Shown: positions 25,171-41,668 of the stretch, piece by piece
How positions within the stretch are numbered: position 1 is the first letter of the stretch
Layout: the number at the start of each line of letters is the position of its first letter
Assembly: GCA_964598745.1 (NCBI GenBank)
Contig: CAZRCV010000004.1
Span: 1 to 60,779 of the forward strand
Length of the DNA stretch: 60,779 bases
Direction of reading: 5' to 3'
DNA from: an uncultured Methanosarcinales archaeon
GTDB lineage: Archaea > Nanobdellota > Nanobdellia > Woesearchaeales > GW2011-AR9
Made by a program: the position numbers and the translations under genes
The notes under the pieces: generated by a model
What the model was told of the DNA's origin: nothing
The model's database searches: none
What the model saw: only the letters and a program-made list of their open reading frames with translations

Positions 25171-25185
25171 GTTATATTATGCAGT

Positions 25186-25473: not shown

Positions 25474-25639
25474 CGCTACAAGAGCTTGTAACGTTTTATT
25501 TAAAGGTTTTGTGATATAATAAAGGAGGCCTTAGAAAAATTAATTTTCCTTGATTCTCAGATGGTGCTTATAGCAAAAGTTCTACTGGTTCCTAATCTTT
25601 TCAGAAGTAGCATAGGTTAGAAATAATGTTAAGAAAAAG

Positions 25640-25758
25640 CGCCCCCAACCAGACTTCAACTGGTGACCTTTACCGGTTATTGCTAACTTGCGGTATCAGC
25701 CTATAAGGTAACAGCTTCGTGGTAATCTCGCACGCTCTACCTGCTAAGCTATGGGGGC
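25640..25758 (-). tRNA. tRNA-Asn(GUU) with three introns (13, 14 and 19 nt)
   Basis: Hand fold. Acceptor GCCCCCA/TGGGGGC with G73, D arm GCTT/GAGC, T arm ACCAG-TTGAAGT-CTGGT. Removing 25728-25716, 25708-25695 and 25688-25670 yields anticodon arm TGCGG-CUGUUAA-CCGCA and variable loop AGGTC, a 73-nt cloverleaf. Anticodon at 25712-25710. No encoded CCA. Confidence 0.7.
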
Positions 25759-25780
25759 ACTGCTAGTCTTTTACTCCGAC

Positions 25781-25792
25781 TTATTTATATAT
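25781..25792 (-). promoter_or_regulatory. TATA box for tRNA-Asn
   Basis: Minus-strand TATATAAATAA ends about 23 nt upstream of the tRNA 5' end. Confidence 0.4.
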
Positions 25793-25807
25793 TTTTTCAT
25801 ACAAACC

Positions 25808-25815
25808 TTTATAAA
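25808..25815 (+). promoter_or_regulatory. TATA box for aspS
   Basis: TTTATAAA lies 27 nt upstream of the ATG at 25842. It is divergent from the tRNA-Asn promoter. Confidence 0.4.
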
Positions 25816-25841
25816 ACTTTAATTAAATAACTTTATCTGTC

Positions 25842-27611
25842 ATGTTAAGAACACACACATGTGGCGAATTGACGTTAAAGAATGAAAACCAGGTGGTAAC
25901 ACTGTGCGGTTGGAATCATTCTCGCCGAGATCATGGAGGAATAATTTTTATCGACCTGAGAGACCGTTATGGCCTAACACAGTTAGTTTTCGATCCTGAC
26001 CATAATTTGGAAACTCATGTCCGCGCGGAAAAACTGCGCAGGGAAGATTGCCTTAAAGTAACTGGCAAGGTAAGATACCGCGGCCAAGGATTGGAAAACC
26101 AGCATTTGCCTACTGGAGAAATTGAGATCATCGTAGATGAATTGGATATCCTAAACAGCGCTGAAACTCCGCCGTTAGAAGTTGATGATCGCAAGGAAGC
26201 TTCCGAGGAAATGCGGCTAAAATACCGTTATTTAGATTTGCGCCGGCCAATTATGCAAAAACATTTACTAGTTCGCCATCAAGTTTTGCAAGCCTGCCGG
26301 GAATTGCTCGATAAGGAAGGATTTACAGAAATAGAAACGCCGATGCTAGTTCGTTCTACTCCGGAAGGGGCGCGTGATTATTTAGTGCCATCGCCATTTC
26401 ATCCCGGGCAAGTTTATTCGCTTCCGCAGTCGCCGCAAATTTACAAGCAGCTGCTGATGGTGGCGGGAATGGACAAGTACTACCAAATTGCTCGCTGCAT
26501 GAGAGCCGAAGATTCGCGCTCAGACCGGCAGCCAGAATTTACCCAATTGGATATTGAACTGAGTTTCGTGGATGAAGAGGACATTTATGCTATAGGTGAA
26601 AAACTATTTTATCACATCATGAAGAAAGTAAAAGGCATTGAGATAAAAACACCTTTTCGAAGAATGTCCTATGCTGAATCTATGGTTAAGTATGGTTGTG
26701 ATAAGCCAGACCTGCGTTTTGGCTTGGAACATCTAGATGTTTCTGAAATTGCCCAAAGCAGCGATTTTTCTGTGTTCAAGTCTGCAGTAGATAAGGGAGG
26801 AATAGTAAAATGTATCAATGCTAAAGGAGCCGGTTTGGCCTTTTCGAGAAAAGAAATTGATGCTCTGATTGCTTATGCTCAAAATTTAGGCGCGGCTGGC
26901 TTAGCTTGGATGAAAATGACCCCGCAAGGATTAGAATCATCCATTTGCAAATTCTTTAAGCCAGAACTGCAAAACATTTTAACTAAAAAAATGCAAGCGC
27001 AAGCCGGAGATTTATTATTATTCTGCGCTGGCGAAGAAAAATCAGTGCATAATGTAATGTGGAAAGTGCGCTTGAAGTTAGGTGATGATCTAAAACTAAT
27101 AAATCAGGATGAGTTTAACTTTTGTTGGATCAATCAATTTCCTATGTTTGAATGGAATACTGATGAAGGAAAGTGGGAAGCTATGCATCATATCTTTACC
27201 ATGCCTCGTGATGAAGATATGAAATATTTAGAAGAAAATCCAGGTAATGTGCGTGGCAAGTTGTACGATTTAGTGCTTAACGGAATTGAACTATGCTCTG
27301 GTTCAATTAGAATCAACCGGCCGGAAATTCAAGAGCGAGTAATGAAGGTTATTGGTATGAGCCTGGAAGAAGCGCAAGAAAAATTTGGGTTTTTATTGAA
27401 TGCTTTCAAATACGGAGCTCCGCCTCACGGGGGGTTTGCGCCAGGATTAGACCGGTTTGTGATGTTGATTGAAAAATTGGATAACATTAGGGATGTAATT
27501 GCTTTCCCTAAAAACAAGAACAAGGAAAGCCCCATGGATGGTTGTCCCTCCGCCTGGAATGCTAAAGACTTGAAAGAAAATTACCTAAAGTTAGAATTGC
27601 CTAAAAAGTAA
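25842..27611 (+). CDS. aspS: Aspartyl-tRNA synthetase, bacterial type (possibly non-discriminating)
   Basis: 589 aa with an N-terminal OB fold, class II motifs (FRAEDSRSDRQPEFTQLD; GGFAPGLDR) and the large bacterial insertion domain between motifs 2 and 3. Confidence 0.9.
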   Translation: MLRTHTCGELTLKNENQVVTLCGWNHSRRDHGGIIFIDLRDRYGLTQLVFDPDHNLETHVRAEKLRREDCLKVTGKVRYRGQGLENQHLPTGEIEIIVDELDILNSAETPPLEVDDRKEASEEMRLKYRYLDLRRPIMQKHLLVRHQVLQACRELLDKEGFTEIETPMLVRSTPEGARDYLVPSPFHPGQVYSLPQSPQIYKQLLMVAGMDKYYQIARCMRAEDSRSDRQPEFTQLDIELSFVDEEDIYAIGEKLFYHIMKKVKGIEIKTPFRRMSYAESMVKYGCDKPDLRFGLEHLDVSEIAQSSDFSVFKSAVDKGGIVKCINAKGAGLAFSRKEIDALIAYAQNLGAAGLAWMKMTPQGLESSICKFFKPELQNILTKKMQAQAGDLLLFCAGEEKSVHNVMWKVRLKLGDDLKLINQDEFNFCWINQFPMFEWNTDEGKWEAMHHIFTMPRDEDMKYLEENPGNVRGKLYDLVLNGIELCSGSIRINRPEIQERVMKVIGMSLEEAQEKFGFLLNAFKYGAPPHGGFAPGLDRFVMLIEKLDNIRDVIAFPKNKNKESPMDGCPSAWNAKDLKENYLKLELPKK

Positions 27612-27622
27612 GTTAACTGTTT

Positions 27623-28225
27623 CTAACTTGATTTTTGATATTTGTACATTACAGTTACCGTAGTTCCAGATGGTTTATCTTCAGAACTGTTGATGTTAAC
27701 TTCATAATGTGGTTCATTCATTGCTGTAAATCCACTTCCTTGGCATTGATAGTGTATCCCGCGTTTTCTGGTTCCATTTTGTGTAGCTATAATGATTGGT
27801 AGTGGATTAAATCCACAGCCGTTATCAGTTATTTGAAAAACTAACCCTCGTTTTCCAAAAAAATATTCCACTAAAGAGGGTTTAGCTTCTCCTTGTGAAC
27901 CTCGATAAATAGCATTCTCCAGCAGAAGAAAGATTAGGTTGGGTATACCAGAATAATAAAAATTGCCAGTTAAGTTACAATCCCCTTGATTGGGGCTGGC
28001 TTGGGAATTAACTAATACTGCAAAGTCATCAGTTAATAATCTTATTGCTCTCCCAAAACTAAAAGCGAAAGAAGCATTTTCATCTTTTAAGCATTCCCTA
28101 AAATCAAACACCCGATCTATTGAGCTGTTAACATCCGTGCCAGCTTCTTGCAACATATCAACTAAAGTTTTAGTGGTGAAAACCATCTTCGGGGCAGTTT
28201 GATTAGCTTTTATAAACTTTGACAT
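27623..28225 (-). CDS. Stand-alone GHKL/HATPase_c-like ATP-binding protein
   Basis: N box LLENAIYRG, G1 box ITDNGCGF, G2-like GSGFTAM. No HisKA, receiver or TM segments. Confidence 0.5.
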   Translation of the reverse strand: MSKFIKANQTAPKMVFTTKTLVDMLQEAGTDVNSSIDRVFDFRECLKDENASFAFSFGRAIRLLTDDFAVLVNSQASPNQGDCNLTGNFYYSGIPNLIFLLLENAIYRGSQGEAKPSLVEYFFGKRGLVFQITDNGCGFNPLPIIIATQNGTRKRGIHYQCQGSGFTAMNEPHYEVNINSSEDKPSGTTVTVMYKYQKSS

Positions 28226-28261
28226 AAATTATTAAAAGAAGCGCTATTTATAGCTACATAA

Positions 28262-28450
28262 GGACCCGTAGTTCAGCCTGGATGCATCTTTCTGCAGGGA
28301 AAATAGAACGATAGCCTCCTACTCCAATGAAGAACTCCTGAGTAATTCCAATCATGGAATACCAAAGTTCACTGAGGAGATGAAAGCTATAGGTCGGGGG
28401 TTCAAAAGCTTTGGTTAAAATAAACCAGCCTGAAAGTCCTCCCGGGTCCG
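28262..28450 (+). tRNA. tRNA-Arg(CCU) with three introns (D-loop approx 18-21 nt; 37/38, 63 nt; 59/60, 30 nt)
   Basis: Hand fold. Acceptor GGACCCG/CGGGTCC with G73, D stem GTTC/GAAC, anticodon arm ATAGC-CUCCUA[28322-28384]A-GCTAT, variable AGGTC, T arm GGGGG-TTCAAA[28407-28436]T-CCTCC. The spliced T loop is the canonical TTCAAAT. D-loop intron boundaries are uncertain (starts about 28283, ends 28300-28303). Confidence 0.7.
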
Positions 28451-28525
28451 CTTTATTATCACTTAGGAAAGATATAGCCTTGTGATTAGTAAATTATTTA
28501 AAGGATAAATTAAACCATAACAGCC

Positions 28526-28840
28526 ATGTTCTGTTCAAAATGTGGTTCAATCCTAAGGCCAAAGGAAAAAGCAGGCAAAAAAATACTTTACTGCAGTTGT
28601 GGCTTTACTAAAAATCTGGATAATGAATCCAATGCTGAGATCAAGGAAAAAGTGCAAGCAGCTAAAAAGATTGAAATCGTGGAAAGTGTTGAAACTAATC
28701 CTAAAGTAAAAATAAAATGTGAAAAGTGCGATAATGGCATGGCCTATTATTGGACCCAGCAAACTCGCGGCGCTGACGAACCGGAAACCAGATTTTTTAA
28801 ATGCACCAAATGCAGCTACACTTGGAGGGAATATGCGTGA
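28526..28840 (+). CDS. tfs: Transcription factor S (TFS / RpoM)
   Basis: 104 aa with an N-terminal zinc ribbon (CSKCG...CSCG) and a C-terminal TFIIS-type ribbon (CEKC...QTRGADEPETRFFKCTKC). Confidence 0.85.
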   Translation: MFCSKCGSILRPKEKAGKKILYCSCGFTKNLDNESNAEIKEKVQAAKKIEIVESVETNPKVKIKCEKCDNGMAYYWTQQTRGADEPETRFFKCTKCSYTWREYA

Positions 28841-29343
28841 GTTCGGTGCAAGAACTGCAACAGTCTCTTCATTCTAGCCAAGTTTTTAAAGAATGGGTTT
28901 CTAACCATCCTCAAGCTTACTTATCGCATCTGTTTAGCACTATTACTTCTGCTCTGGAACAAAAATCTAGCTGGGAAATTGGTTATTTTAATCCAGAGAA
29001 ACAGAAAATAGCTGTCTTTGTAAAAACTGAGCAGGCTTTCATGATGAAGCAAGAAGATGAGGTTTTTAAAACAGAAGAAAGCATAATCGAAGAACTAAAT
29101 TTACCTAAGGCAGTGGTAAGTTTTGATTCAGCTGCCGCAGCCTGCCGCAAAGAATTGATAACATTATTTCCAAAAGAAAATTTAGGAGATGGATTTGTAG
29201 TTTTGCAAACAATAGATCAAAAAACGCAATGGAATTTTACACTCATAACTAAGGCTTTAAAATTTGCTAATGTAAAAATTTCCGCTGTTACCGGAAAAGT
29301 AGACACACACCAGCTGGTGGAAGCAGTAAAACTTAGTAACTAA
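28837..29343 (+). CDS. Hypothetical protein
   Basis: ORF in the track frame. Start placed at the GTG that overlaps the TFS stop (GTGA), giving VSSVQELQQ.... The upstream 12 codons lie inside tfs. Confidence 0.45.
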   Translation: MSSVQELQQSLHSSQVFKEWVSNHPQAYLSHLFSTITSALEQKSSWEIGYFNPEKQKIAVFVKTEQAFMMKQEDEVFKTEESIIEELNLPKAVVSFDSAAAACRKELITLFPKENLGDGFVVLQTIDQKTQWNFTLITKALKFANVKISAVTGKVDTHQLVEAVKLSN

Positions 29344-29644
29344 TCTTAATATTATTTATATTTTAAAGTAGTAATTGGCTAGTATTTTTTATAAAGGTAA
29401 ATCGCAATAATTTTTCTAAAGTGGTGTCGCTCTTAAGTATATATTTTCCAACTGCGGAGTCTTTATATAGTTTATTTATTCTACTAAAGTTACCGATAGA
29501 TGTTTGAAAAAAGGGGTGATTGATGTCCTATGAAAATTTCTTACAAGGCCGCCATTAGTTCAAAAAAATTAGACAGTTTCTTTACCACGGAAACTAAAGA
29601 AGAAGAGGAGTAATTTTAAAACAATGATTGTGATTTATTTTTTT

Positions 29645-30286
29645 TCATTTATCTTCAATTTTTGAACTTCTTAAGAATTGATCCAAGGTTGACTTTACTT
29701 CTCTGAAAACGGTTTGTAGTTTTTGGTTTCCATCAATGCTAACAAAACGCTCTCCATTTGCTGTTAACGCTGCTATTGCGGTTTGGTAATTAGTTTTAAC
29801 TCTAGACAAAAGATCTTCTTGCTCAAAAACTTCTCGTGAACTGCGCGTTTGACGAATTCTTTCCATAGCTAATTTTAAATCAACCTCAAAAACCAAAGTT
29901 AAATCAGGCCGATATAACCCTTGATGTTTTTGGATCAACTCATTAATATCCATTCCCATAGCTGATTGATAAGCAATGGTAGATAACTTATGGCGGTCGC
30001 AAAGCACGATTTGGCCTTGCTGAAGTGCGGGAATGATTCTGCGGCTTAAGTGCATAACCCGATCATCATAAAATAGCTCCGCAAATTGTTCTGCAGAAAC
30101 AGGGCTGCTTTCAGTGTTGCCTTGAGCTGCTAAAACTCTAATTTTGCGGCCGATATCCATATCTGTCGGTTCTTTGGTGGCCAGAACATTATAACTTTGA
30201 GAACGAAGATAATCTGCAGCTAAGCGGAGTTGTGTAGTTTTTCCACAGCCGTCAATGCCTTCAAAAACAATAAATTTTCCGGTCAT
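29645..30286 (-). CDS. tmk: Thymidylate kinase
   Basis: P-loop FIVFEGIDGCGKTTQ, DRH motif and LID region. 213 aa. Confidence 0.85.
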   Translation of the reverse strand: MTGKFIVFEGIDGCGKTTQLRLAADYLRSQSYNVLATKEPTDMDIGRKIRVLAAQGNTESSPVSAEQFAELFYDDRVMHLSRRIIPALQQGQIVLCDRHKLSTIAYQSAMGMDINELIQKHQGLYRPDLTLVFEVDLKLAMERIRQTRSSREVFEQEDLLSRVKTNYQTAIAALTANGERFVSIDGNQKLQTVFREVKSTLDQFLRSSKIEDK

Positions 30287-30813
30287 AGTTTTAGCTTATA
30301 TTCAATATAAGTGTGTGTCCCTTCATGATGCTTAGTTCGCTTGATTTCTTGCCACGAGCTTTGATCAAATGGAGGCAATTTAGTATCTCCACCCCAGGAG
30401 CCATGCACTTTGGTTTCATAAATTTTGCTAACTAATCCAGAATTCATAGCTTCGGCATAAGGTCGCGAGCCTCCCGCAACAAAAACAGTACTAGAATCAA
30501 TACCAACGAACTCACTATTATCTAGTACTTCTATGGCTGATGGTAAAGATGGAACCACAATTACACCTGGATCATTATAGCTAGCAGTTGATGAAAGAAT
30601 TATATTTAATCTGTCTTTTAGTGGCCTAAGCTTAGGGGGAATAGACTCGTAAGTAACCCTGCCCATAATTACAGGATGGCCTATAGTAAGCTGCTTAAAT
30701 CGTGCTAAATCATCCTTAAGGCGGAAAGGCCAAGGAAAACCAACCTGGCCATTACGAGTTACACCAATGTAACCATCATCCGCTACAGCATAAATTAGAG
30801 CTAAATTTATCAT
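30283..30813 (-). CDS. folA: Dihydrofolate reductase
   Basis: 176 aa with FPWPFRLKDDLARFKQLT and VIMGRVTYESIP DHFR motifs. 4-nt overlap with tmk. Confidence 0.8.
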   Translation of the reverse strand: MINLALIYAVADDGYIGVTRNGQVGFPWPFRLKDDLARFKQLTIGHPVIMGRVTYESIPPKLRPLKDRLNIILSSTASYNDPGVIVVPSLPSAIEVLDNSEFVGIDSSTVFVAGGSRPYAEAMNSGLVSKIYETKVHGSWGGDTKLPPFDQSSWQEIKRTKHHEGTHTYIEYKLKL

Positions 30814-30814
30814 T

Positions 30815-31678
30815 TTATATTGCTACCTCCGCTTTAATGTGTGGATGAGGATCGTAACCAACCAACCTAAAATCATCAAATTTGAAATCAAAAATATTTG
30901 AAACTTTTTGGTTAATAACCATTGTAGGTAATGGCCGAGGTGTTCGGCTTAACTGCAACGTGGTTTGTTGCAAATGGTTTCTGTAAAGATGCAGATCACC
31001 AAAGGCCTGAACAAATTCTCCCGGTTGTTTTCCCGTTACTTGGGCCATCATCATAGTCAGCAAAGCATAAGAAGCAAGGTTGAATGGCACTCCCAAAAAG
31101 GCATCAGCGCTTCTCTGATACATCTGGCATGAAAGCTTCTGTTGTTCAGGCCTAGTTTCATCACCAGCTACATAGAACTGAAATAAGGTATGGCAGGGAG
31201 GCAAAGCTACCTCATCCGCTTCAGCTGGATTCCAAGAACTAACAATAATTCTGCGGCTGAACGGATTTTTTTTAATGGTTTCCACGGCTCTAACAATTTG
31301 ATCTATTCCATCATTTTGATAAGTGCCATCAGCGTTCTTAGTAGCTCCGAAATTCCGCCATTGATGGCCATAAACTGGGCCTAAATCGCCTGGTTTTCTG
31401 CCGAATCTAGCCGTTTGTTCTTCAGTAGCCCATTCATTCCAAATGGTAACTCCTTGTTGATTTAACCACTGAGTATTGGTATGGCCGCCCAACATCCATA
31501 ATAATTCATACAGAATAGATTTAAGATGCAGTTTTTTGGTGGTAAGCAAAGGAAAACCAGCTGCTAAGTCACAACGCAGTTGATAACCAAAGACGCCAAC
31601 AGTGCCAACTCCAGTTCGATCAAGTCTCTCCTTACCCCTAGTTAAAATATGTTCCAATAATGAAAGATATTGTTCCAT
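30815..31678 (-). CDS. thyA: Thymidylate synthase (ThyA)
   Basis: 287 aa, [11 protein letters not shown] and the [12 protein letters not shown] active-site Cys motif. Confidence 0.95.
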
Positions 31679-31835
31679 GGTCGAAACTATAATCTGTTCT
31701 ATAAATTAAACATCTCTTATTTCTAAATAATAGCTTTAAGCAGTACCATTTAATCTATTTAAATCGCTTTCTCTTCTGGAGAAATAGCATTGAAAGATAA
31801 AAATACATTTAAATTTGGTTCTGAGCATAAAACTA

Positions 31836-32846
31836 ATGATCATTGGCGTCACTGGCTTGTTTTGTTCAGGAAAAGATACCGTAGCTAAATTTCTGCAAGA
31901 AATGAATTTTTATCATATTTCTTTTTCTGATTTGATCAGAGATGAACTTAAAAGAAGAAAGCAGAATATTACTCGGAACTCATTAATTGAAACCGGAAAC
32001 GAACTGAGAAAAAGCCTGGGCGCGGATACTTTAGCTAAGCAGGCTTTAGCGCAAGTTAAAGATGGGGAAAATTATGTTTTTACTTCTATCCGCAATCAAG
32101 CCGAAGTGGAATTACTGCAGCACCGAACAGATTTTCTGCTTATTAAAGTAGTAGCGCCAATTAAAGCCAGGCTGCAAAGAATTATTCAAAGAAACCGGGA
32201 AGAAGATCCTAAAACATTGCAAGAATTAAAACAAAAAGAACAGCAAGAGTCTAGTTCAGAAGTTCATCAACAGCAATTGTCTCAAGTCTTAAGCCTGGCT
32301 AAAGTAACCATTAACAATAACTCTACTCCAGAGGCGCTAACGGGCAAAGTAAACCAACTAGTTAAAGATTATTTATATCTGCTGCAGGAGGCGCGCCCTA
32401 GCTGGGACAAATATTTTATGAATATCACTGAACAAGTTAAATTGCGTTCCACCTGCTTGTCGGCTAAGAAAGGGGCGATTCTCGTTCGTGACAAAATGAT
32501 CTTGTCTACCGGTTACAATGGTTCGCCGAAGAACATCCGGCATTGCAATGATGGTGGCTGCCAGCGCTGCACTTCCCGCCATTTGGGAAAAATGAAATCT
32601 GGTGTTTATCAAGAACCTTGTATTTGCTGCCATTCCGAAGAGAATGCTATAGTGCAGGCGGCTTATAGCGGTATTTCCACTCGTGGAGCTACACTTTACA
32701 CTACTTTTACTCCTTGTATTGTTTGCGCTAAAATGATTATTAATTCTGGTATTGCTCAAGTAGTATCTAAAGTGGCTTATCCTGATGATACAGCCAAAGA
32801 ATTATTAAAGCAGGCTAAAATCAAGCTGGAGGTTTTGATGAATTAA
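31836..32846 (+). CDS. Fusion protein: P-loop nucleotide kinase-like domain plus dCMP deaminase domain
   Basis: N-terminal Walker A (IIGVTGLFCSGKDT). The C-terminal half has cytidine/deoxycytidylate deaminase zinc motifs (HSEENAI and PCIVCAKMII). The ATG at 31836 is preferred over the TTG at 31815. Confidence 0.75.
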   Translation: MIIGVTGLFCSGKDTVAKFLQEMNFYHISFSDLIRDELKRRKQNITRNSLIETGNELRKSLGADTLAKQALAQVKDGENYVFTSIRNQAEVELLQHRTDFLLIKVVAPIKARLQRIIQRNREEDPKTLQELKQKEQQESSSEVHQQQLSQVLSLAKVTINNNSTPEALTGKVNQLVKDYLYLLQEARPSWDKYFMNITEQVKLRSTCLSAKKGAILVRDKMILSTGYNGSPKNIRHCNDGGCQRCTSRHLGKMKSGVYQEPCICCHSEENAIVQAAYSGISTRGATLYTTFTPCIVCAKMIINSGIAQVVSKVAYPDDTAKELLKQAKIKLEVLMN

Positions 32847-33075
32847 TTATTTCTAACACTTTGTCCCTGCTGTTAAGGCCGCTTACAATCCTGACAGTTA
32901 ACTTCAGCTGTTTTTTAAAAAATTTAATTAATTGATCGTTAGCTTGATGATCTGCCGCTGGTTTGGTTAGGTATAACTTCAACTGGCCTTTATCTTCAAT
33001 CAATTTTAATCTGGAAGAGTTGGGAACGACTCGAAGATGAATGTGTCCATTAAACATATAAGCGGTTACATTCAT
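32821..33075 (-). CDS. DUF167 (YggU-like) family protein
   Basis: 84 aa, LRVVPNSSR...KPAADHQANDQLIKFFKK...VRIVSGLNSRDKVLEI pattern. Confidence 0.65.
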   Translation of the reverse strand: MNVTAYMFNGHIHLRVVPNSSRLKLIEDKGQLKLYLTKPAADHQANDQLIKFFKKQLKLTVRIVSGLNSRDKVLEIINSSKPPA

Positions 33076-33170
33076 ATATCTTTATAAGGTAGTTAGTTCT
33101 TAAAAGTAGGGGTGGTACAAGTATCTTATACTAATTAAAGATACCTTTGTTAATAGATGTTTGCTAGCTG

Positions 33171-33800
33171 ATGGACTCAATAAAAATTACTCTGGAGACG
33201 TTGTACGACTTTGTGAGAAATGAGAAAAAGCGTGCTGATTTGCAGCAGTTGGAAGCTGCCTTCTTGATAAACGTTGCCGGTTACGTAAGAGAAAAACAAG
33301 CACTTTTGAAAGAAAAAGAGCATGACGCCAGTATTTTTGCTGCAGGAGAGCGAGACAAATTGGAATATGAAGTGCGCAGCATCAAGCGCATTCTGAAAGA
33401 AATCTATGAACTACGGGAAAAAAAGATCATTGATATCGCCCTAAATAAAAGCAAAACAGGCTCGGAAATTATCGATACCAGCGCGATGTTAAGGGAAGAA
33501 AAGGAATTTTACCAGCAGCTGCTGCGAGTTTTGGACTTATCCCGGCAGAAAGTATTGTTTAAATTGTATAACGGCGAACTTCCGGTGTTGCTGGAAACAA
33601 CCTTGCCAGAAATTAAAATGATTTCGGCAGATAAAGAAAAGACTTCCGTAATGACCATGATTAGGTTTATTCATCCCACGCCAAGTTTTGTGTGGAAGGA
33701 TCTAAAAGTTTATGGTCCCTATGGAATAGGCGTTGAGACAGAAATTTTCACCGAAGTGGCGGAATTATTAATTCGCAAGAAACGCGCCGAGAGAGTTTAA
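33171..33800 (+). CDS. Probable archaeal GINS subunit (Gins51-like)
   Basis: 209 aa. Layout resembles Gins51: N-terminal LETLYDFVRNEKKRADLQQLEAAF, central KKIIDIAL, C-terminal beta domain with KVYGPYG...AELLIRKKRAE. Confidence 0.5.
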   Translation: MDSIKITLETLYDFVRNEKKRADLQQLEAAFLINVAGYVREKQALLKEKEHDASIFAAGERDKLEYEVRSIKRILKEIYELREKKIIDIALNKSKTGSEIIDTSAMLREEKEFYQQLLRVLDLSRQKVLFKLYNGELPVLLETTLPEIKMISADKEKTSVMTMIRFIHPTPSFVWKDLKVYGPYGIGVETEIFTEVAELLIRKKRAERV

Positions 33801-34633
33801 AGGCCGCGATGATGTTTGACTATTGGCACTAATTCTTCTGGTTTGTCAATAATATAATCAAAATTAACTTTCTTTCCACTTTCTAAAGTTGTTCCCCGCT
33901 CCAATAGTTCCCGGCCTTCATAACCCCAGGCTGCGCCGACCATTAATAAATCTACTTTTTTGGATAAGCCGGGAACTAATACTTCGCGAGATGCAGCTAA
34001 GTCGGCTCTGGTGTCACCTACATGCATAGTGTTAGGCCCAGTCGTTCCCAGAGTTCTTAAACACCAAGCTACAGAAATAGTACTTGGTTTTCTTAAAGAT
34101 TCACCATTCCCTGCGCCGTGAGCTTCTCGCAGTATTTCTATTCCAACTTGAGTATCAAAGTATTGGATAACTCCTGCGCGTTCCAATTCTCGGCTAATAG
34201 TTTCCCAGGTATTGGTAGAGTTTACCGCCATTCTTAATCTAGTTGAGCCAGTTAATCGTTGCGCTGAAAGTGAACCTAAAGCATAGAGTTGTTCTAAAAC
34301 TTCTTTAATTCCAGGAAATAAACCCAGTTGATGGGTTGTTTTAAATTCATTATAAGCCGCCCACACAGGATGATCTTTATCTTTCATGTCACAAGGTAGT
34401 CCATGTTTATCATAAAAGTTTTGCACACCACTAGCTACATCTCCAGCCCCATGCAAAGTATAATTATAATCTAATAAGAATTCACTTAAATCTTTATAAG
34501 GTAAAGGTGGCTTTCCATTTACCATGGCCCAGTTTTGAAACCATTGGTATTGTCTTGGAGCTGTACAAGATAAAACACCATCATTATCAAAAATAATTCC
34601 TTCTAATGAACCATTAATTTCTGGTTGATGCAT
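33797..34633 (-). CDS. HAD-superfamily hydrolase
   Basis: Motif I IIFDNDGVL and motif III VGDTRADLAA. 278 aa. Confidence 0.6.
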   Translation of the reverse strand: MHQPEINGSLEGIIFDNDGVLSCTAPRQYQWFQNWAMVNGKPPLPYKDLSEFLLDYNYTLHGAGDVASGVQNFYDKHGLPCDMKDKDHPVWAAYNEFKTTHQLGLFPGIKEVLEQLYALGSLSAQRLTGSTRLRMAVNSTNTWETISRELERAGVIQYFDTQVGIEILREAHGAGNGESLRKPSTISVAWCLRTLGTTGPNTMHVGDTRADLAASREVLVPGLSKKVDLLMVGAAWGYEGRELLERGTTLESGKKVNFDYIIDKPEELVPIVKHHRGL

Positions 34634-34768
34634 TTTAAATGTTTAAAAGGCCGGAGTTTAAAAAATATTCTAATTTAAAAACAATAGTTCAAGATATCCA
34701 GTACAAAGCCTGATAATAACCGAATGAAGCGAGATTTTCCACATAGCCATCTAAATTAGACAGAAGCC

Positions 34769-35563
34769 TTACCTTTTTTTAAAGGCACTAGTTACTACAA
34801 AACCTGCAAACAACAATAGAACGATTACGCCGCTAGGTGGAAGGTCAACAATATAAGAAACAATAATGCCGCTAATTGCTGCTACCATGGCGCTAAATGA
34901 GGAAATAAGTAAGGCCTGCTTAAATGAGCTAGCTAAATTCAAGGCAATCATGCTGGGAATGACTAACAGCGCCGAAATTAATAGAATGCCTACAGCTCTG
35001 ATGCTGATTACCACCACCATTGCTGTTAAAAGTGTAAATATAATATTAGCTAAATTAACCCTGTGGCGGTACAGGTAAGCTAATTCTTCGTTAAAAGTAA
35101 GATAAAACATGTCCTGATAGAACAATTTTAAAAAAATTATCACTGCCAATAATAAAGATAAAGCTAGGATTAAATCAAAATTATTAAGTGTTAAAATACT
35201 GCCAATAAGATAACTGTAAAGGTTGCTGTTAAATCCCCTTACTGCAGCAATCATGACTATCCCTAAACCTACTCCAAAAGAAAGCAATAAAGCAATCACA
35301 GCATCACCGTAGAGATTTTTCTTAAGTGTGTGACGAACCCAGAAACTGCCAACGATGGCCATCACTAAGGCTGAGAGTAAAGGATTAATGCCTAACAGGA
35401 ACCCTAAAGCCACGCCGCCAAACGATAAATGGGCTAAACCATCGCCCAGCAAAGAAAGCCTTCTTAACACTAAAAATGGCCCCAGCAAGCCACAAGAGAT
35501 GGCGATAGCTAATCCTCCCAGCAAAGCTTTTTGCATAAATCCATAACTCAGTAATTCAATCAT
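34769..35563 (-). CDS. znuB: Metal (Zn/Mn) ABC transporter permease
   Basis: 264 aa, ABC-3 type multi-TM permease. 8-nt overlap with the ATPase gene. Confidence 0.8.
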   Translation of the reverse strand: MIELLSYGFMQKALLGGLAIAISCGLLGPFLVLRRLSLLGDGLAHLSFGGVALGFLLGINPLLSALVMAIVGSFWVRHTLKKNLYGDAVIALLLSFGVGLGIVMIAAVRGFNSNLYSYLIGSILTLNNFDLILALSLLLAVIIFLKLFYQDMFYLTFNEELAYLYRHRVNLANIIFTLLTAMVVVISIRAVGILLISALLVIPSMIALNLASSFKQALLISSFSAMVAAISGIIVSYIVDLPPSGVIVLLLFAGFVVTSAFKKR

Positions 35564-36236
35564 GATGCTTGCCTCGAAGATGATTTAAATGATGATGCAC
35601 AAAATAAGGCCCATACATTTGCTTTAACAAACTAGGAATTTGCCGTGGTGTTCCCATGCAACAAACTCGGTGATTGATGCACAATACTGTTTTGACTAAC
35701 GAAGAAAGAATGCCTACTTCATGTGTAACTAGGATTATGGCCATTCCTTGACGGTTTAATTTTTTAAGCAATTGGTAAAATGACTGCTGGGCTTGCACAT
35801 CCACCCCGGCAGTAGGCTCATCTAAAATCAACAATTGCGGATTTCTTAACAAAGCTAAAGCAATAAGTACCCGCTGCTGTTGTCCGCCCGAGAGCGAGGC
35901 GAATTTCTTATTAAGGACTCCTTGTAAACCTAATAAATTTATTAATTCAGGTTTAACTGTAAGTAATGTTTCTTTCACGGTGCCTGGAAAATTCCGATCA
36001 ATGGTGTAACGCTGTGGGACATAACTTATCTTATTTCTGTTAATCTTAATCTCAACACTGCCGCTAGTTGGGGATAGTAAACCCAGAATAACCTTCACTA
36101 GGGTAGTTTTTCCTGAGCCGTTGGGGCCAATCAAGGCCAAAAAATCCTTTTCTTTAACCGCAAAAGAAATGTCTTCCAATATTTTTTGCTCAGCAAAGGA
36201 AAAGAACAGTGAAGAAACAGTAATTAAAGATTTCAT
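35556..36236 (-). CDS. znuC: Metal ABC transporter ATP-binding protein
   Basis: Walker A GPNGSGKTT, signature LSGGQQQR, Walker B LLILDEP. The ATG at 36236 is preferred over the upstream TTG. Confidence 0.85.
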   Translation of the reverse strand: MKSLITVSSLFFSFAEQKILEDISFAVKEKDFLALIGPNGSGKTTLVKVILGLLSPTSGSVEIKINRNKISYVPQRYTIDRNFPGTVKETLLTVKPELINLLGLQGVLNKKFASLSGGQQQRVLIALALLRNPQLLILDEPTAGVDVQAQQSFYQLLKKLNRQGMAIILVTHEVGILSSLVKTVLCINHRVCCMGTPRQIPSLLKQMYGPYFVHHHLNHLRGKHHD

Positions 36237-36288
36237 GGACAGATAAAACAATATCTTTTAGGCTTGTGCAAAAATAAAATTTTTAAAA

Positions 36289-37191
36289 TCATGTCGTGCA
36301 TTCCAGAGCCAGTTTCAACTTCTGCAAATTTTTCTGCATGATAGTAATGTAAGTATCAGCTGGATTGGTAGTGCCTTCCACCGGGCTTAGCTCCAACAAA
36401 CTGGCTCCAGTTTCGCTGGCAATAGCCTCGGCTACACGCGGATCAACTAATTCCTCATATAAAATGTATTTGATATTCTCTGCTTTAGCCAAATTGATTA
36501 ATTGTTTAATTTGATTGGGAGTTGGTTCTGTTTCTGGTTCTAGCCCGCTGATGGACTTGGTTCTGAAACCATAATCACGGCCCAAGTAGGAAAATGAATT
36601 GTGGCTGCTAAGAATAACTTCTTTTTTACAGTTGGTTAACCCTTGTTTATATTCCACATCCAGTTTTTCCAGTTGTTCAATTAAATTGTTGCCGTTCTCA
36701 ACATAATAGTTGGCATTTTCAAAATCAATCATACTCAAGCCATTAATAATATTAGCAGCCATTATTTTGGCATTTTTAGGAGAAAGCCAGATATGCGGGT
36801 CAAGCCTGCTGGCGGCTTCCAGAGGATCTGTTTTAATTTGGCTGACTCCTTTGCCGGCCGAGATTACTTGAACCTGGCCTATTATAGATTCAGTAAAAGT
36901 ATCTTCAAATGGCGCAAATCCTGTTCCTAAAATAACCAAGGCATCAGCCCGATTTAGCTGTTGGATATCGCTAGGCTTTGGCTCAAAATCGTGCGGTTCT
37001 GCGCCAGCTGGAACCAAAGAGTAAACTGTACCATAGTCGCCCACGATACTTTTAGCCAAATCATACAGTGGATAAAAAGTGGCGGCCACTGCCAATGATT
37101 TATTATTTGTTAAAGGATTAGCTTGATTTGCTGAACATCCGAGCAAAGATAGAACCATAATGCCAATCCAAACAATTGTTATAATTTTCAT
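36289..37191 (-). CDS. znuA: Metal ABC transporter substrate-binding lipoprotein (TroA/ZnuA-like)
   Basis: Lipobox LSLLGCSA and HDFEP / DPHIWLSP metal-binding motifs. Confidence 0.8.
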   Translation of the reverse strand: MKIITIVWIGIMVLSLLGCSANQANPLTNNKSLAVAATFYPLYDLAKSIVGDYGTVYSLVPAGAEPHDFEPKPSDIQQLNRADALVILGTGFAPFEDTFTESIIGQVQVISAGKGVSQIKTDPLEAASRLDPHIWLSPKNAKIMAANIINGLSMIDFENANYYVENGNNLIEQLEKLDVEYKQGLTNCKKEVILSSHNSFSYLGRDYGFRTKSISGLEPETEPTPNQIKQLINLAKAENIKYILYEELVDPRVAEAIASETGASLLELSPVEGTTNPADTYITIMQKNLQKLKLALECTT

Positions 37192-37226
37192 CTATCATTC
37201 AAAAAATTATCTTGGTATTTAAATAG

Positions 37227-37251
37227 TTTATTGATAATCATTATCAATAAA
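37227..37251. promoter_or_regulatory. Fur/Zur-box palindrome in the znuA-zur divergent spacer
   Basis: TTTATTGATAATCATTATCAATAAA is a perfect 12-1-12 inverted repeat containing the classical Fur-box core GATAATCATTATC. Confidence 0.6.
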
Positions 37252-37280
37252 TTTATATTTATTAATCAGTTTATATTTTT

Positions 37281-37652
37281 ATGGTAAGGGCTACTAAACA
37301 AAAACAGCTATTAGGAGAAGAAATTAAGCAGCTTAAATCGTTCTTTGATGCTTATACTTTGCACCGGAATGTTTCCAGGAAAGACAGAAAACTAGGGATA
37401 GCCACAGTTTACCGGTTTCTGACCCAGCTAGAAGAGCAAGGAGGAATCCATTCCTTTATCTGCGATAAAAAAAGAATTTATTCCAGCAATAAAGTAAACC
37501 ATGCTCATTTCAAGTGTGAGCGATGCGGACAAGTAACGCACTTAAAAATAACCAACATTGATTTCCTGAAGGAATTAAAAGATAATGAGGTTTGTCATTT
37601 TCAAATTGAGATAAGTGGAATTTGTTCTACCTGTAGGAAGAAAGTTGAATAA
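37281..37652 (+). CDS. zur: Fur-family metalloregulator (Zur-like)
   Basis: 123 aa with HTH ATVYRFLTQLEEQGGI, HAHFKCERCG and a C-terminal CSTC zinc site. Confidence 0.75.
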   Translation: MVRATKQKQLLGEEIKQLKSFFDAYTLHRNVSRKDRKLGIATVYRFLTQLEEQGGIHSFICDKKRIYSSNKVNHAHFKCERCGQVTHLKITNIDFLKELKDNEVCHFQIEISGICSTCRKKVE

Positions 37653-37720
37653 TAACCAAAGCCAATAATAAAATTATTACGACAAGATTTTTAAATAAAG
37701 TTATTAAAATTAGCTAAACT

Positions 37721-38059
37721 ATGGACTTAAAGAAATATCTGCGAGGAAAATTAGCTGTACAACAATCCGGGTTAGAGCGGGAATTGAAAGCAACTAAAGG
37801 AGCAGTGGTAAGTTTGGATCGAACAGACTTAGAGCGTGCTGTCTATGAAGTAAATCTTCATAGCCTCTGGGCTGATTATGGAGGAAAGGATGTTGTTGTT
37901 ACTCATTCTGGAAATATTTCTGATGCTGTTGCTCTGGCGGAACAAAAATTTAAAATGATAAATCGGAAAAGAGATGTTCAAGCTATTTATCGGGTGTCGA
38001 TTGTTTTAAATGGGCAAAAGCACCTTATTCCAGCAGAATGTTATTACAAATCAGATTAA
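37721..38059 (+). CDS. Hypothetical protein
   Basis: 112-aa ORF with no recognised motif. Confidence 0.4.
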   Translation: MDLKKYLRGKLAVQQSGLERELKATKGAVVSLDRTDLERAVYEVNLHSLWADYGGKDVVVTHSGNISDAVALAEQKFKMINRKRDVQAIYRVSIVLNGQKHLIPAECYYKSD

Positions 38060-38088
38060 TATCCTAATTTTAACATAATCCAAACATT

Positions 38089-38096
38089 TTTATATA
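38089..38096 (+). promoter_or_regulatory. TATA box for topA
   Basis: TTTATATA lies 23 nt upstream of the ATG at 38119. Confidence 0.4.
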
Positions 38097-38118
38097 TTCT
38101 ACAAAATGAGCATTGGTA

Positions 38119-40365
38119 ATGGTAGAATTAAGTATCAGTGAAAAGCCCTCCTCGGCTCAGAAAATCGCGGAAGCTTTGGCTGAAGGCAAACTAAAAAAAA
38201 AAAAACACCAGCAGTGCGCTTACTATGAATTGAATAGGGGCAAGCACAAGATTCTGGTTACTTCAGCGGTAGGCCACCTGTTTGGATTGGTGGAAGCTCG
38301 GAAGCAGGCATGGAGTTATCCTATTTTTGATATTGTTTGGCAGGCTTCTAACATTACTTCTAAAGAATTAGCTTATGTTAAAGATTATATTGATACCATA
38401 GCCCTGCTGGCTAAGAAAGCTGAGGAAGTCACGATTGCCTGCGACTATGATGTGGAAGGTGAAGTCATCGGCATGAACGTTGTGCGTTTTGTTTGCCATC
38501 GTAAAGATGCCAACAGAATGAAATTTTCAACCTTAACTAAACCTGATTTAGTTGAAGCTTACGAACACAAACGCAAGCATCTGGATTGGGGACAGGCTAA
38601 CGCCGGTGAAACCAGGCATAAATTAGATTGGTACTACGGAATTAATTTGTCCAGAGCTCTGACTTCTTCAGTTAAAACTGCTGGTTCGTTTAAAGTTATG
38701 TCTGCAGGCAGAGTGCAAGGGCCAGCGCTGAAATTGTTGGTAGATAGAGAACGAGAAATTAGGGCATTCAAGCCAGAACCATATTGGGAAATTGCTTTCG
38801 AGGGAGAATATCAGAACAACAATCTGCAAGGAATGCATTGCCATGGCCGGATTGATAGCCAGAAGGAAGTAGAAAAAATCATGTCTAATGTTAAAGGGCA
38901 TAAACAGGCTCTAGTTAAATCTGTCAAAACTAGCCAACGAACTCAAGCTCCACCTACTCCTTTTGACTTAACCACTTTGCAATCAGAATCTTACAATTTG
39001 TTTAAAATTACCCCTAAGCAGACTTTAGCTATTGCCCAAAGCCTTTATTTAGCTGGAGTTACCTCTTATCCGAGAACTTCCTCTCAACAATTAGATCCAA
39101 AATTAGGCTTTCAAAAAATCATCAAAAGTTTAAGCCATCAAACTAGTTACCAAAAATTATGTGAGCTATTACTTAAATTAAAAGAATTAAAGCCAAATAA
39201 TGGCGCTAAATCTGATCCAGCTCATCCAGCTATTTATCCTACTGGCTTGGCGCCCAAGGAACTCAAGTCGCAAGAAAAAAAAATATATGATTTAATTGTC
39301 AAGCGGTTTATGGCTACGTTTGCTAAACCAGCCTTGCGGGAAACCATGGAAGTTACCTTGGATGTTAATAAAGAATTGTTTTTAGTTAAAGGAACCAGGA
39401 CATTAGAGGAAAATTGGCATATTTTCTATAAGCCTTACGTTAAATTAGAAGAATTAGCTTTACCTAAGATGGAACAGGGAAATCAAGTTAAGGTAAAAAA
39501 AATTTCTTCTATAAGCAAAGAGACGCAACCGCCTAAACGTTTCAATCAAAGTTCTATCATTAAAGAATTAGAAAAAAGAAATTTGGGAACCAAAGCTACG
39601 CGCGCCGATATCTTGGATCGAATGTTTACGCGCGGCTATATTGATGGTGTGCAAATAACTGTTACTAAGTTGGGCGAAGAAACAACTCACGTTCTAGAGA
39701 AATTTGCGCCACGGATTATCGATGAAAAATTAACCGCTGAATTTGAAGAAGAGATGGAAAAGATCAGAGCCGGCCAAGCCCAGCCAGAAAAAATTTTGGA
39801 AAAGGCCAAAACTTTTTTAACTAAATTATTAACAGATTTCAAAAAGAAAGAGCCGCAAATAGGCAAGGAAATCATTACTTCGGTTAGAGCTACGCAGGAT
39901 GAACAAAATTACCTGGGGAAATGCCACCAATGCCAGCGAGGAAAGTTAATGATGCGTTATGGAAAATTTGGCCGATTTGCCGCTTGTGATGCTTATCCTG
40001 CTTGTAAAACTACTTTTAAGCTGCCGCAAGGAACAGTCAAGCGGACAGAGAAAACTTGCGAACACGATAATTATCCGATAATCCAAGTACTGCAGAAAGG
40101 AAAACGGCCTAGAATTTATTGCCTTAAATCTGACTGTAAAAGCAAAGTTTCGATAGTTGAAACTAAGGAAGCAGGCAAAGTTGAACTTCATAAAATCAAG
40201 AAAAACTGTCCTAAGTGTTCCAAATCATTGGTGGTAAGAAAATCATTTTATGGCGAGTTCTTAGCCTGTCCTGGATTCCCTGCTTGCAAGTACATTGAAA
40301 ATTTCGACCGACAAACAGGCCATTTTGAAAAAACTGAGGATAAAGAAAAAGGTAAGCGAGTTTAG
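38119..40365 (+). CDS. topA: DNA topoisomerase I (type IA)
   Basis: Toprim (ISEKPS...DYDVEGE), an active-site Tyr region (GVTSYPRTSSQ) and several C-terminal C4 zinc ribbons. The ATG at 38119 is preferred over the TTG at 38113. Confidence 0.9.
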   Translation: MVELSISEKPSSAQKIAEALAEGKLKKKKHQQCAYYELNRGKHKILVTSAVGHLFGLVEARKQAWSYPIFDIVWQASNITSKELAYVKDYIDTIALLAKKAEEVTIACDYDVEGEVIGMNVVRFVCHRKDANRMKFSTLTKPDLVEAYEHKRKHLDWGQANAGETRHKLDWYYGINLSRALTSSVKTAGSFKVMSAGRVQGPALKLLVDREREIRAFKPEPYWEIAFEGEYQNNNLQGMHCHGRIDSQKEVEKIMSNVKGHKQALVKSVKTSQRTQAPPTPFDLTTLQSESYNLFKITPKQTLAIAQSLYLAGVTSYPRTSSQQLDPKLGFQKIIKSLSHQTSYQKLCELLLKLKELKPNNGAKSDPAHPAIYPTGLAPKELKSQEKKIYDLIVKRFMATFAKPALRETMEVTLDVNKELFLVKGTRTLEENWHIFYKPYVKLEELALPKMEQGNQVKVKKISSISKETQPPKRFNQSSIIKELEKRNLGTKATRADILDRMFTRGYIDGVQITVTKLGEETTHVLEKFAPRIIDEKLTAEFEEEMEKIRAGQAQPEKILEKAKTFLTKLLTDFKKKEPQIGKEIITSVRATQDEQNYLGKCHQCQRGKLMMRYGKFGRFAACDAYPACKTTFKLPQGTVKRTEKTCEHDNYPIIQVLQKGKRPRIYCLKSDCKSKVSIVETKEAGKVELHKIKKNCPKCSKSLVVRKSFYGEFLACPGFPACKYIENFDRQTGHFEKTEDKEKGKRV

Positions 40366-40673
40366 TAATAAATAAATTTTAATTATTAAACTGTTTTCTG
40401 GTTTTGAATAACATTGACTCTAAAAAATTGTTATATTAACAGCATGAATACCAGAAGGAACTGAAGTAGTTGTAAACTATCATCAGAGATGTAGTAATGG
40501 TAGTTTATGTACAAGTAGTTATAGATATGCAAGAGGAGATGCATTAATTCCTAAAAAAAGAAATTAGGGAATATTCTTTTTGATAATAATATTAATTTTA
40601 ATAATTCTCTTGTAACCATTTTTAAAATTTAGAACTTATATTGCGTATATACTCCGCTTAAACATAAAAAGGA

Positions 40674-40834
40674 TGTGGGCGGCAGGGTTCGAACCTGCGT
40701 AGGGACTAACCCACTGGGTATCTTCCAGTCACAGCAGTAATGCTCAGCATACCCGCTGCCAGTTTGGCCTAAGCTTAGCCTAATTATTCTCCTGAACAAT
40801 TAACCAGCCCGTTTGACCACTCCGGCACGCCCAC
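40674..40834 (-). tRNA. tRNA-Leu(UAG), class II, with two introns (29 nt at 30/31; 48 nt at 37/38)
   Basis: Hand fold. Acceptor GTGGGCG/CGCCCAC with A73, D arm CCG-GAGTGGTCAAA-CGG, long variable arm TGGGTTAGTCCCTAC, T arm GCAGG-TTCGAAC-CCTGC. Removing 40803-40775 and 40767-40720 gives anticodon arm CTGGG-CUUAGGA-CCCAG, 84 nt mature. Anticodon at 40771-40769. Confidence 0.75.
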
Positions 40835-40984
40835 GCTAATTTTAAAATTACAGTTTTTAATCTTGTTTTTATATGTTTCTATCAAAATGGTTCTTTGCTT
40901 AACAGGATAGGTAGTTTATTCTAATTTGGGAATAATATTATCTTTTTCATAACACTTAAAAACAGCAGATAATCATTGCCTGTG

Positions 40985-41668
40985 ATGAAACACTTAGTAA
41001 TCCTATTGCTTATTATTAGCTTGCTGCTCATTACAGCCTGTTCACAAGCTAGTCAAGTTACTGGTGATGTAGTTAGCGATGGTGATTCCTGCTTGAAATT
41101 AGGCTCTGCAGCTAAAGATAACTGTTACTTTGAACAAAATAAGTGCAGTAAAATTGGCAAGGAATCGATAAGAAACAGCTGTGTGGCTGGTTTAGGCATA
41201 AAAAAACAAGATTTAGAGGTGTGTAAGCTTATTACCTCTTCTACTACGAGAGGGTACTGTGAATCGGGGGTGGCTGCTGCCGTAAATAAGGTAGAAATTT
41301 GCAAAGATATTACGGATAATTACTGGAGGGATAACTGTTATTTTAATTATGCCACAGAAAATAATGATGCCTTATACTGTTCAGCTATTGGTTCAATAGA
41401 ACAGCAGCAAGATTGCTTCTTTGATGTGGCTACAACTATAAATAAACCGGAATTATGTGAAACTTTGCCTGATAACCGAGAAGAAATCTGTATCTCCCAA
41501 ATAGCCCAACAGCTGTTAGACATAACTGTCTGCGATAAAATTAAAACTGCGCTTTCACAGGACAGTTGCCGGCTAAGATTGGCTTCCAAGGTCTTAAATA
41601 ATGAAAACAGTTGTGATACTATCCGCTTTAAAGAAATGAGAGATATTTGCCATCAAAGATTTGAATAA
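40985..41668 (+). CDS. Cys-rich repeat lipoprotein
   Basis: Signal/lipobox MKHLVILLLIISLLLITAC, then 17 further Cys in a roughly 27-30-aa periodic pattern (C-x9-11-C-x12-14-C). The ATG at 40985 is preferred over the TTG at 40976. Confidence 0.55.
   Translation: MKHLVILLLIISLLLITACSQASQVTGDVVSDGDSCLKLGSAAKDNCYFEQNKCSKIGKESIRNSCVAGLGIKKQDLEVCKLITSSTTRGYCESGVAAAVNKVEICKDITDNYWRDNCYFNYATENNDALYCSAIGSIEQQQDCFFDVATTINKPELCETLPDNREEICISQIAQQLLDITVCDKIKTALSQDSCRLRLASKVLNNENSCDTIRFKEMRDICHQRFE

Follow-up and report, generated by a model that had tools for sequence, protein, structure and literature searches.

Does a stretch of archaeal DNA for which standard programs report no tRNA gene carry functional tRNA genes that are each interrupted several times? 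The stretch comprises positions 1 to 60,779 of contig CAZRCV010000004.1, and these 60,779 nucleotides (nt) are referred to below as the window. The host is a Woesearchaeota/Nanoarchaeia archaeon of the DPANN group, and the archaeal markers GINS51, eIF2-gamma, L18e and an archaeal ThrRS editing domain were identified by Pfam. Default ARAGORN made zero tRNA calls across the 60,779 bases, and Rfam, run over the whole window at gathering thresholds and at E<=10, gave no tRNA match. A first-pass annotation made from the DNA letters had proposed genes for tRNA-Asn, tRNA-Arg and tRNA-Leu, with three, three and two introns. Our analysis indicates that these are very probably three functional archaeal tRNA genes, each split by two or three short introns of the bulge-helix-bulge (BHB) type (Table 1).

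Three interrupted tRNA genes and their splice junctions

Both strands of the window were screened for a 7-bp acceptor stem with U8, a 5-bp T stem abutting the 3' acceptor strand, and a T-loop-like sequence. Exactly three T-loop-bearing loci were obtained, those of tRNA-Asn, tRNA-Arg and tRNA-Leu; all remaining matches lay within coding regions and were without T-loop. No uninterrupted tRNA gene was found in the window by ARAGORN or by this screen, which is blind to split (trans-encoded) tRNA halves. With one intron allowed, ARAGORN flagged 25639-25758 (-) and 40674-40834 (-), in both cases with a wrong single-intron model. The tRNA model of Rfam (RF00005; gathering threshold of 29 bits) scored 38.0 bits at the Asn locus only if a 3-kb stretch was searched, and its alignment treated the middle of the gene as a single 61-nt insertion. 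The Arg and Leu loci were not matched by this model even in stretches of 250-300 nt. Such poor recovery is expected because the genes contain multiple introns. In normal scans, both programs miss all three genes, which is an annotation problem.

After removal of three, three and two inserts, respectively, sequences of 73, 75 and 84 nt remained, which ARAGORN recognized as tRNA-Asn(gtt), tRNA-Arg(cct) and tRNA-Leu(tag) with full cloverleafs. Each has the 7-nt anticodon loop with U33 and a purine at position 37 that is expected for archaeal genes with BHB introns. All three gene models are exact substrings of the window. Within each gene the exons follow one another in order on a single strand, in 119-189 nt, unlike those of split or permuted tRNA genes. 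Introns total 237 nt and exons 232 nt; the G+C content of the exons is 61% and that of the introns 40%, the latter being near the window background of 30-42%. A T-run follows every 3' end, in the window and in the orthologues described below. The minimum-free-energy fold of the Arg precursor contains the cloverleaf stems together with intron hairpins.

The junctions were picked from the cloverleaf alone and were scored for BHB geometry afterwards. The strict 3-4-3 geometry consists of two 3-nt bulges, each cut after its second base, with a 4-bp helix between them and outer and inner helices flanking them. The scores (Table 1) were compared with those of 200,000 random same-length pseudo-introns in the window, which had a mean of 5.4 and reached at least 10, 11 and 13 with probabilities of 4.1%, 1.5% and 0.075%, respectively. 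To allow for boundary sliding and the choice of context, each intron was penalized fourfold; the p-value combined by Fisher's method was then ~3e-7. All eight introns form a junction of the hBHBh' type or of one of the relaxed types (HBh', hBH, BHL). The central helix has all four pairs in four introns, three in three and two in one. A fully strict hBHBh' was detected only at Arg 59/60, the other seven junctions being weakened in one helix; at Asn 43/44 and Leu 30/31 it is the outer helix that is weak. The interior of the Asn 30/31 intron is just a 6-nt loop, making this junction bulge-helix-loop-like.

Since seven of the eight junctions are relaxed, the host enzyme would have to tolerate imperfect BHBs in the D-loop, anticodon stem, variable region and T-loop. 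Strict hBHBh' motifs are required by the alpha4 and alpha'2 types of the splicing endonuclease EndA, and relaxed motifs are cut by the (alpha-beta)2 and epsilon2 types (PMC3239211, PMC5829648). A broad-specificity splicing endonuclease in this host is plausible and would fit the literature. At Asn and Leu 37/38, the outer helix is the anticodon stem itself, which cannot form completely until the 30/31 intron is out; the score then rises from 9 to 11. This suggests that splicing is probably ordered in both genes, with 30/31 first.

According to our model, each gene would be transcribed into one colinear precursor of 119-189 nt that ends at the T-run. EndA would cut within the two 3-nt bulges around the 4-bp helix at every exon-intron junction, in Asn and Leu removing the 30/31 intron before the 37/38 intron. 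The exons would then be joined by an RtcB-type ligase and, because CCA is encoded by none of the three genes, it would be added after splicing.

Orthologous genes and alternative explanations

Relatives were reached via the window AspRS (25842-27611), with 79-85% identity in metagenome-assembled genomes (MAGs) of Candidatus Woesearchaeota and Nanoarchaeia, and neighbouring genes led to further loci. Four loci, L001, L002, L083 and L169, in which AspRS is 79-85% or GatA 74% identical to that of the window, are referred to as the clade. The orthologous genes do not count as observations independent of one another. An intron-free orthologous junction exists for six of the eight introns, the exceptions being Arg 37/38 and Leu 37/38, both of them canonical introns. 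At L171:8319-8391, adjoining AspRS-gatCAB, we found an uninterrupted 73-nt tRNA-Asn that can be aligned without gaps to the spliced model of the window gene. It has none of the three Asn introns, and compensatory changes between the two genes were detected in the acceptor, anticodon and T stems. The Asn 30/31 intron is present in the L001, L002 and L169 orthologues.

The Arg 19/20 insert is exactly missing from the three Arg genes of the clade, which have an uninterrupted AGCCTGG or AGCTTGG and ATA there. In the Arg T arm, L083 also carries an intron at 59/60; the T-loop of L001, TTCAAAT, is uninterrupted, with an intron at 53/54 instead. The Leu orthologue L165:1315-1200 (-) lies beside a homologue of window ORF (open reading frame) 40976-41668, a matching position. 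There, CTGGGCTTAGG is continuous over the 30/31 junction, and the only intron, of 32 nt, is at 37/38. No Leu orthologue was found near TopA in L161-L164, L166 and L168, where gene order after TopA differs. Mature sequences are 95-96% identical to their clade orthologues and orthologous introns 53-100%, the Asn 43/44 intron being 100% identical to its L002 counterpart. Further covariation was seen at Asn 7-66 (A-T/G-C) and at Arg 27-43 and 28-42.

With clean cloverleafs, BHB scores above chance and intron-free orthologues joined at the predicted junctions, the exon/intron models of the first-pass annotation hold. The same is true of its gene and intron counts with their coordinates, of the intron positions, including the D loop, 43/44 and T-loop 59/60, of the 30/31 site common to Asn and Leu, of the use of relaxed BHB forms, and of the statement that the 60 kb contain no uninterrupted tRNA gene.

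It is unlikely, in our view, that the introns are retained because they break up attachment sites of viruses or plasmids (the hypothesis of Randau and Soll) and are not neutral passengers under a permissive endonuclease. The idea has been discussed in the literature (PMC4090602, PMC4033280), and introns do interrupt the anticodon arm and the T arm, where integrating elements typically attach. The intron pattern also varies among close relatives, but neutral gain and loss predicts such polymorphism equally, and no integrase or tRNA-fragment repeat was seen near the three genes.

The loci could also be decaying tRNA pseudogenes with accumulated insertions, their functional, uninterrupted copies lying elsewhere in the genome, of which the window is the part seen here. 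The unusual G56 of the window tRNA-Asn would fit such decay, as would the failure of the Rfam tRNA model to detect Arg and Leu at all. However, the inserts are placed exactly at BHB-forming sites, and the mature sequences have been conserved, their stems changing in a compensatory manner, with the introns diverging or coming and going. In addition, no uninterrupted tRNA was detected in the ~60 kb of the window or in the L001, L002, L083 and L169 loci, and tRNA-Asn stays beside gatCAB and aspS across lineages. Pseudogenes are thus a very improbable explanation.

Even less probable is removal of the inserts outside the EndA/BHB pathway, by self-splicing as group I or II introns or by an unknown processing system. 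EndA was not found in the available sequence and the BHB of Arg 37/38 is weak, as such a pathway would allow. Group I and II introns are hundreds of nucleotides long and have a ribozyme core, whereas the inserts, at 13-63 nt, are far too short and gave no Rfam intron match. Moreover, the agreement of all eight junctions with the 3-4-3 geometry is far better than expected by chance, and another DPANN lineage is known to have EndA sites at 37/38, 53/54 and 59/60 (PMC3239211). Finally, although the window is from a metagenome-type contig of 63,174 bp, chimeric or mis-assembled sequence as the source of the inserts has a negligible probability: they stand at structurally meaningful positions, and the interrupted structures recur in independent NCBI, JGI and ENA contigs (L001, L084, L170; L002, L081, L082; L083; L169), which rules out an assembly artefact.

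Several points weigh against our interpretation of the loci as functional, EndA-spliced genes. Neither EndA nor RtcB was found by Pfam in ~60 ORFs of the window or in the fetched related loci, and a phmmer search with the EndA of M. jannaschii, which covered every ORF of the window and of 19 archaeal loci, gave no match. The central helix of Arg 37/38 has just two of four pairs. The enzymes, the splicing order and expression are inferred from the DNA. The analysis covered the window part of the source genome, and uninterrupted duplicates are possible elsewhere. In addition, the Asn T-loop of the window is TTGAAGT, with G56 at window position 25656 (minus strand), and all four orthologues have C56 (TTCAAGT or TTCGAGT); with G56, the tertiary pair usually formed by G19 and C56 would be lost. 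The change may be genuine, the sign of a weakened gene or a sequencing error.

Intron load in related archaea

Ten further clade genes were modelled (Table 1). They contain one to five introns, were validated by ARAGORN after splicing and have BHB scores of 10-14. Another relative, L168 (TopA 74%), has a tRNA-Thr(GGT) with three introns (D loop, 37/38 and 59/60). ARAGORN detected no uninterrupted tRNA in the clade loci and L168. Fewer introns were found in more distant Woesearchaeota: two in L167 Ser, one each in L165 Leu and L003 Phe, and none in L171 Asn. Introns recur at 30/31 in three genes, those for Asn, Leu-TAG and Leu-TAA, and at 59/60 in five different ones. The T-arm site varies between orthologues, with 59/60 in the window and L083 versus 53/54 in L001 for Arg, and 59/60 in L169 versus 53/54 in L001 for Ser(GGA). 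The introns at the two sites are without detectable sequence similarity; among these close relatives, introns could have switched sites or could have been gained and lost independently.

Published archaeal tRNA genes contain three introns at most (PMC3239211, PMC4033280, PMC8450103). The highest count on record is 71 introns, spread over 46 genes, and the mean in Thermoproteales is 0.84 per gene (PMC8450103). Our literature searches retrieved no report of an archaeal tRNA gene with more than three introns. The window genes are within this per-gene maximum; the tRNA-Asn genes of the relatives, with four and five introns, exceed it. The window density of 2.7 introns per gene would, if representative, be beyond the record. 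Tentatively, and with slightly less than even chances, the clade may have the heaviest tRNA-intron load yet. Almost every gene would then have two to five BHB introns, at ~2.5 per gene in the sample of ~60 kb of the source genome and ~60 kb from four relatives, which is above the ceilings of three per gene and ~1.5 per gene genome-wide, and introns would have been gained, lost or switched between sites (53/54 versus 59/60, D-loop sites) where flanking proteins are ~74-85% identical. For the EndA of the clade, a 73-nt tRNA interrupted by four or five introns, mostly with relaxed motifs, would mean a demanding substrate range, and if such a load holds genome-wide, this endonuclease would be unusually permissive. 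The tRNA-Asn series, with zero, three, four and five introns, offers a natural system in which gain, loss and movement of BHB introns can be studied.

These genes also bear on tRNA surveys of DPANN archaea. For complete Nanobdellota genomes, only 26-54 tRNAs each and order-wide "missing" tRNAs were described, and split genes were suggested as a possible cause (bioRxiv 10.64898/2026.05.13.725050). Kaneta et al. had one Woesearchaeota MAG among the DPANN genomes surveyed, and some of these genomes had incomplete predicted tRNA sets (PMC5829648). When we scanned 144 kb of related loci with Rfam at gathering thresholds, one of the 14 tRNA genes was found (that for Phe in L003). Multi-intron genes are a concrete alternative explanation for the tRNAs missing from Nanobdellota surveys. 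If the heavy load holds genome-wide, many "missing" DPANN tRNAs would be hidden genes of this kind and not losses or split genes.

Two further ideas of the first-pass annotation concern intron transposition and undescribed intron positions. Intron transposition is unsupported: in an all-against-all local alignment of 32 introns, evaluated with shuffles, similarity was detected between orthologous introns only, although old events would be invisible in such short inserts. The two 30/31 introns of the window (Asn and Leu) are unrelated in sequence. The best non-orthologous pairs had z <= 3.8, including an 8-mer common to two introns of L002 Leu-TAA, and were dismissed because ~500 comparisons yield such values by chance. 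Among the positions, 59/60 is already established in the DPANN archaeon ARMAN-2, as are 37/38 and 53/54 (PMC3239211); 30/31 and 43/44 may be new.

Table 1. Interrupted tRNA genes, their introns and the tRNA-Asn neighbourhood (positions refer to the window unless a locus is named; central, outer and inner helix values are pairs formed out of four; score, BHB score)
Feature	Position	Strand	Details
tRNA-Asn(GTT)	25640-25758	-	precursor 119 nt, mature 73 nt, 3 introns
Asn intron 30/31	25716-25728	-	13 nt, AGATTACCACGAA; 5' strand of anticodon stem; central helix 4/4; score 11
Asn intron 37/38 (canonical)	25695-25708	-	14 nt; central helix 3/4; score 11
Asn intron 43/44	25670-25688	-	19 nt; junction of anticodon stem and variable loop; central helix 4/4, inner 4/4; score 13
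tRNA-Arg(CCT)	28262-28450	+	precursor 189 nt, mature 75 nt, 3 introns
Arg intron 19/20	28282-28302	+	21 nt; D loop; central helix 3/4; score 11
Arg intron 37/38 (canonical)	28322-28384	+	63 nt; relaxed BHB; central helix 2/4; score 10
Arg intron 59/60	28407-28436	+	30 nt; T-loop; outer helix 4/4, central 4/4; score 13; strict hBHBh'
tRNA-Leu(TAG)	40674-40834	-	precursor 161 nt, mature 84 nt, class II with long variable arm, 2 introns
Leu intron 30/31	40775-40803	-	29 nt; central helix 4/4, inner 4/4; score 13
Leu intron 37/38 (canonical)	40720-40767	-	48 nt; central helix 3/4; score 11
Asn, L001	L001:8453-8630	-	5 introns: 15/16, 30/31, 37/38, 43/44, 59/60
Asn, L169	L169:9489-9657	+	5 introns: 15/16, 30/31, 37/38, 43/44, 59/60
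Asn, L002	L002:2418-2562	-	4 introns: 15/16, 30/31, 37/38, 43/44
Leu(TAA), L002			3 introns: 8/9, 30/31, 37/38
Gly(TCC), L002			2 introns: 23/24, 59/60; none at 37/38
Ser(GGA), L001	L001:17532-17717	-	2 introns: 37/38, 53/54
Ser(GGA), L169	L169:79-278		2 introns: 37/38, 59/60
Arg, L001	L001:14427-14595		2 introns
Arg, L083	L083:3440-3599		2 introns
Arg, L169	L169:5149-4973	-	1 intron
tRNA-Asn context module	22412-27611		from Pfam and the ORF list
gatB	22412-23824	-	downstream of tRNA-Asn
gatA	23821-25170	-	downstream of tRNA-Asn
gatC	25186-25473	-	directly downstream of tRNA-Asn
AspRS gene	25842-27611	+	bacterial type with GAD domain; divergent from tRNA-Asn

Gene neighbourhood and known systems

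The window tRNA-Asn gene lies directly upstream of gatC, gatA and gatB on the minus strand and is divergent from the gene for AspRS. The assignment of gatC is based on where the gene lies and on the size of its product (95 aa), as in relatives for which PF02686 is recorded. The same neighbourhood is repeated in L169, L170 and L171, and its gene content suggests a compact module that would make Asn-tRNA(Asn) by transamidation.

Some further features of the window and of related loci were recorded. The 280-nt gap between the window ORFs 46686-48461 and 48740-49312 contains a GC-rich patch (48600-48680) with a tRNA-5'-like sequence, GCCCGTAGCTC, and the long-range complement CCCGCGCAGCA / TGCTGCTCGCGGG. 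As a structured RNA or split-tRNA half it was rejected, its folds being no better than those of shuffled sequences (z-scores of -0.26 and -1.84). Adjacent ORFs at 48740-49829 encode a nucleotidyltransferase (Polbeta/NTP_transf_2) and a HEPN-domain protein, a typical minimal toxin-antitoxin-like module. Archaeal signal recognition particle (SRP) RNA was detected upstream of TopA at L161:9580-9849 (-), L162:2455-2724 (-) and L166:5330-5600 (-), at a distance of 2.7-4.4 kb or less (~150 nt in L161). The window, in which TopA is preceded by Fur-like and small ORFs, gave no SRP RNA match along its whole length. Downstream of TopA in L161, positions 12861-16616 encode a CDC48-type AAA ATPase of 1251 aa that contains intein and LAGLIDADG domains; L162 and L166 encode intein-free homologues of 754-763 aa.

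The Arg 37/38 intron is structured and far better conserved than the other introns (84% identity to L001 and 73% to L083). Beside its terminal stem are a C-box-like AATGAAGA (AUGAAGA) and a D-box-like CTGA (CUGA), giving a k-turn-like arrangement. When the window, L001, L084, L083 and L169 were compared, the terminal stem showed the compensatory variants CTCC/GGAG, CCCC/GGGG and CCTC/GAGG. Two compensatory pairs were found in the apical hairpin, and one pair adjoining the G.A pairs, which is A-U in the window, is replaced by C-G in L083, a further covariation. Box C/D RNAs have C (RUGAUGA) and D (CUGA) beside a terminal stem, with guides of ~12 nt spacing the C' and D' boxes. The motifs of the intron are suggestive of a box C/D guide, but their spacing does not fit one: only 4 nt lie between C and a conserved CUGA, leaving no 12-nt guide from C to D'. 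Also, the bulge in L001 and L084 has 2 nt, not 3 nt, and a conserved A is replaced by G in L084.

A box C/D guide RNA is known from the tRNA-Trp intron of Haloferax and other Euryarchaeota, to which the Arg 37/38 intron is similar in having C- and D-box-like motifs that flank a terminal stem. More generally, tRNA genes with multiple introns are of a known kind, occurring in Thermoproteales, ARMAN-2 and Cyanidioschyzon, and disrupted tRNA genes had already been flagged in DPANN archaea. In Nanoarchaeum equitans, which belongs to a related DPANN group, disrupted tRNAs are likewise reassembled by EndA and BHB processing, but the halves are encoded at separate loci, whereas the exons described here are colinear within 119-189 nt on a single strand. 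The nuclear tRNA genes of Cyanidioschyzon merolae contain up to three BHB-type introns per gene (D arm, 37/38 and T loop), for which ordered splicing was shown by reverse transcription PCR (PMC3728597). In contrast to the present case, this unrelated organism is a eukaryote and some of its genes are permuted.

The Thermoproteales (Pyrobaculum, Thermofilum, Caldivirga) also have colinear genes with several short BHB or relaxed introns at canonical and non-canonical sites (D arm, anticodon stem, T loop); adjacent introns are removed in order, and ordinary tRNA finders miss the genes (PMC4033280, PMC8450103). They differ in their mean of 0.84 introns per gene and maximum of three (PMC8450103), compared with eight in three genes here and four or five in Asn of the relatives. 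They are also hyperthermophilic crenarchaea, unlike the present host, a mesophile-type DPANN archaeon with 38% G+C. In addition, their intron sequences recur between genes, pointing to transposition, and none recur here.

Among the DPANN archaea, Kaneta et al. described alpha4 EndAs with an L3 loop in multiple lineages, accompanying a marked rise in disrupted tRNA genes (PMC5829648). This literature suggests that the EndA of the present clade may be an alpha4 enzyme with an L3 loop. In ARMAN-2 (Ca. Micrarchaeum), also a DPANN archaeon, 56% of the tRNA genes are disrupted, with introns at 53/54 and 59/60 and two in one T-loop, and a broad-specificity epsilon2 EndA cuts relaxed motifs (PMC3239211). 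ARMAN-2 differs in belonging to another DPANN phylum, and the per-gene intron load is higher in the clade described here.

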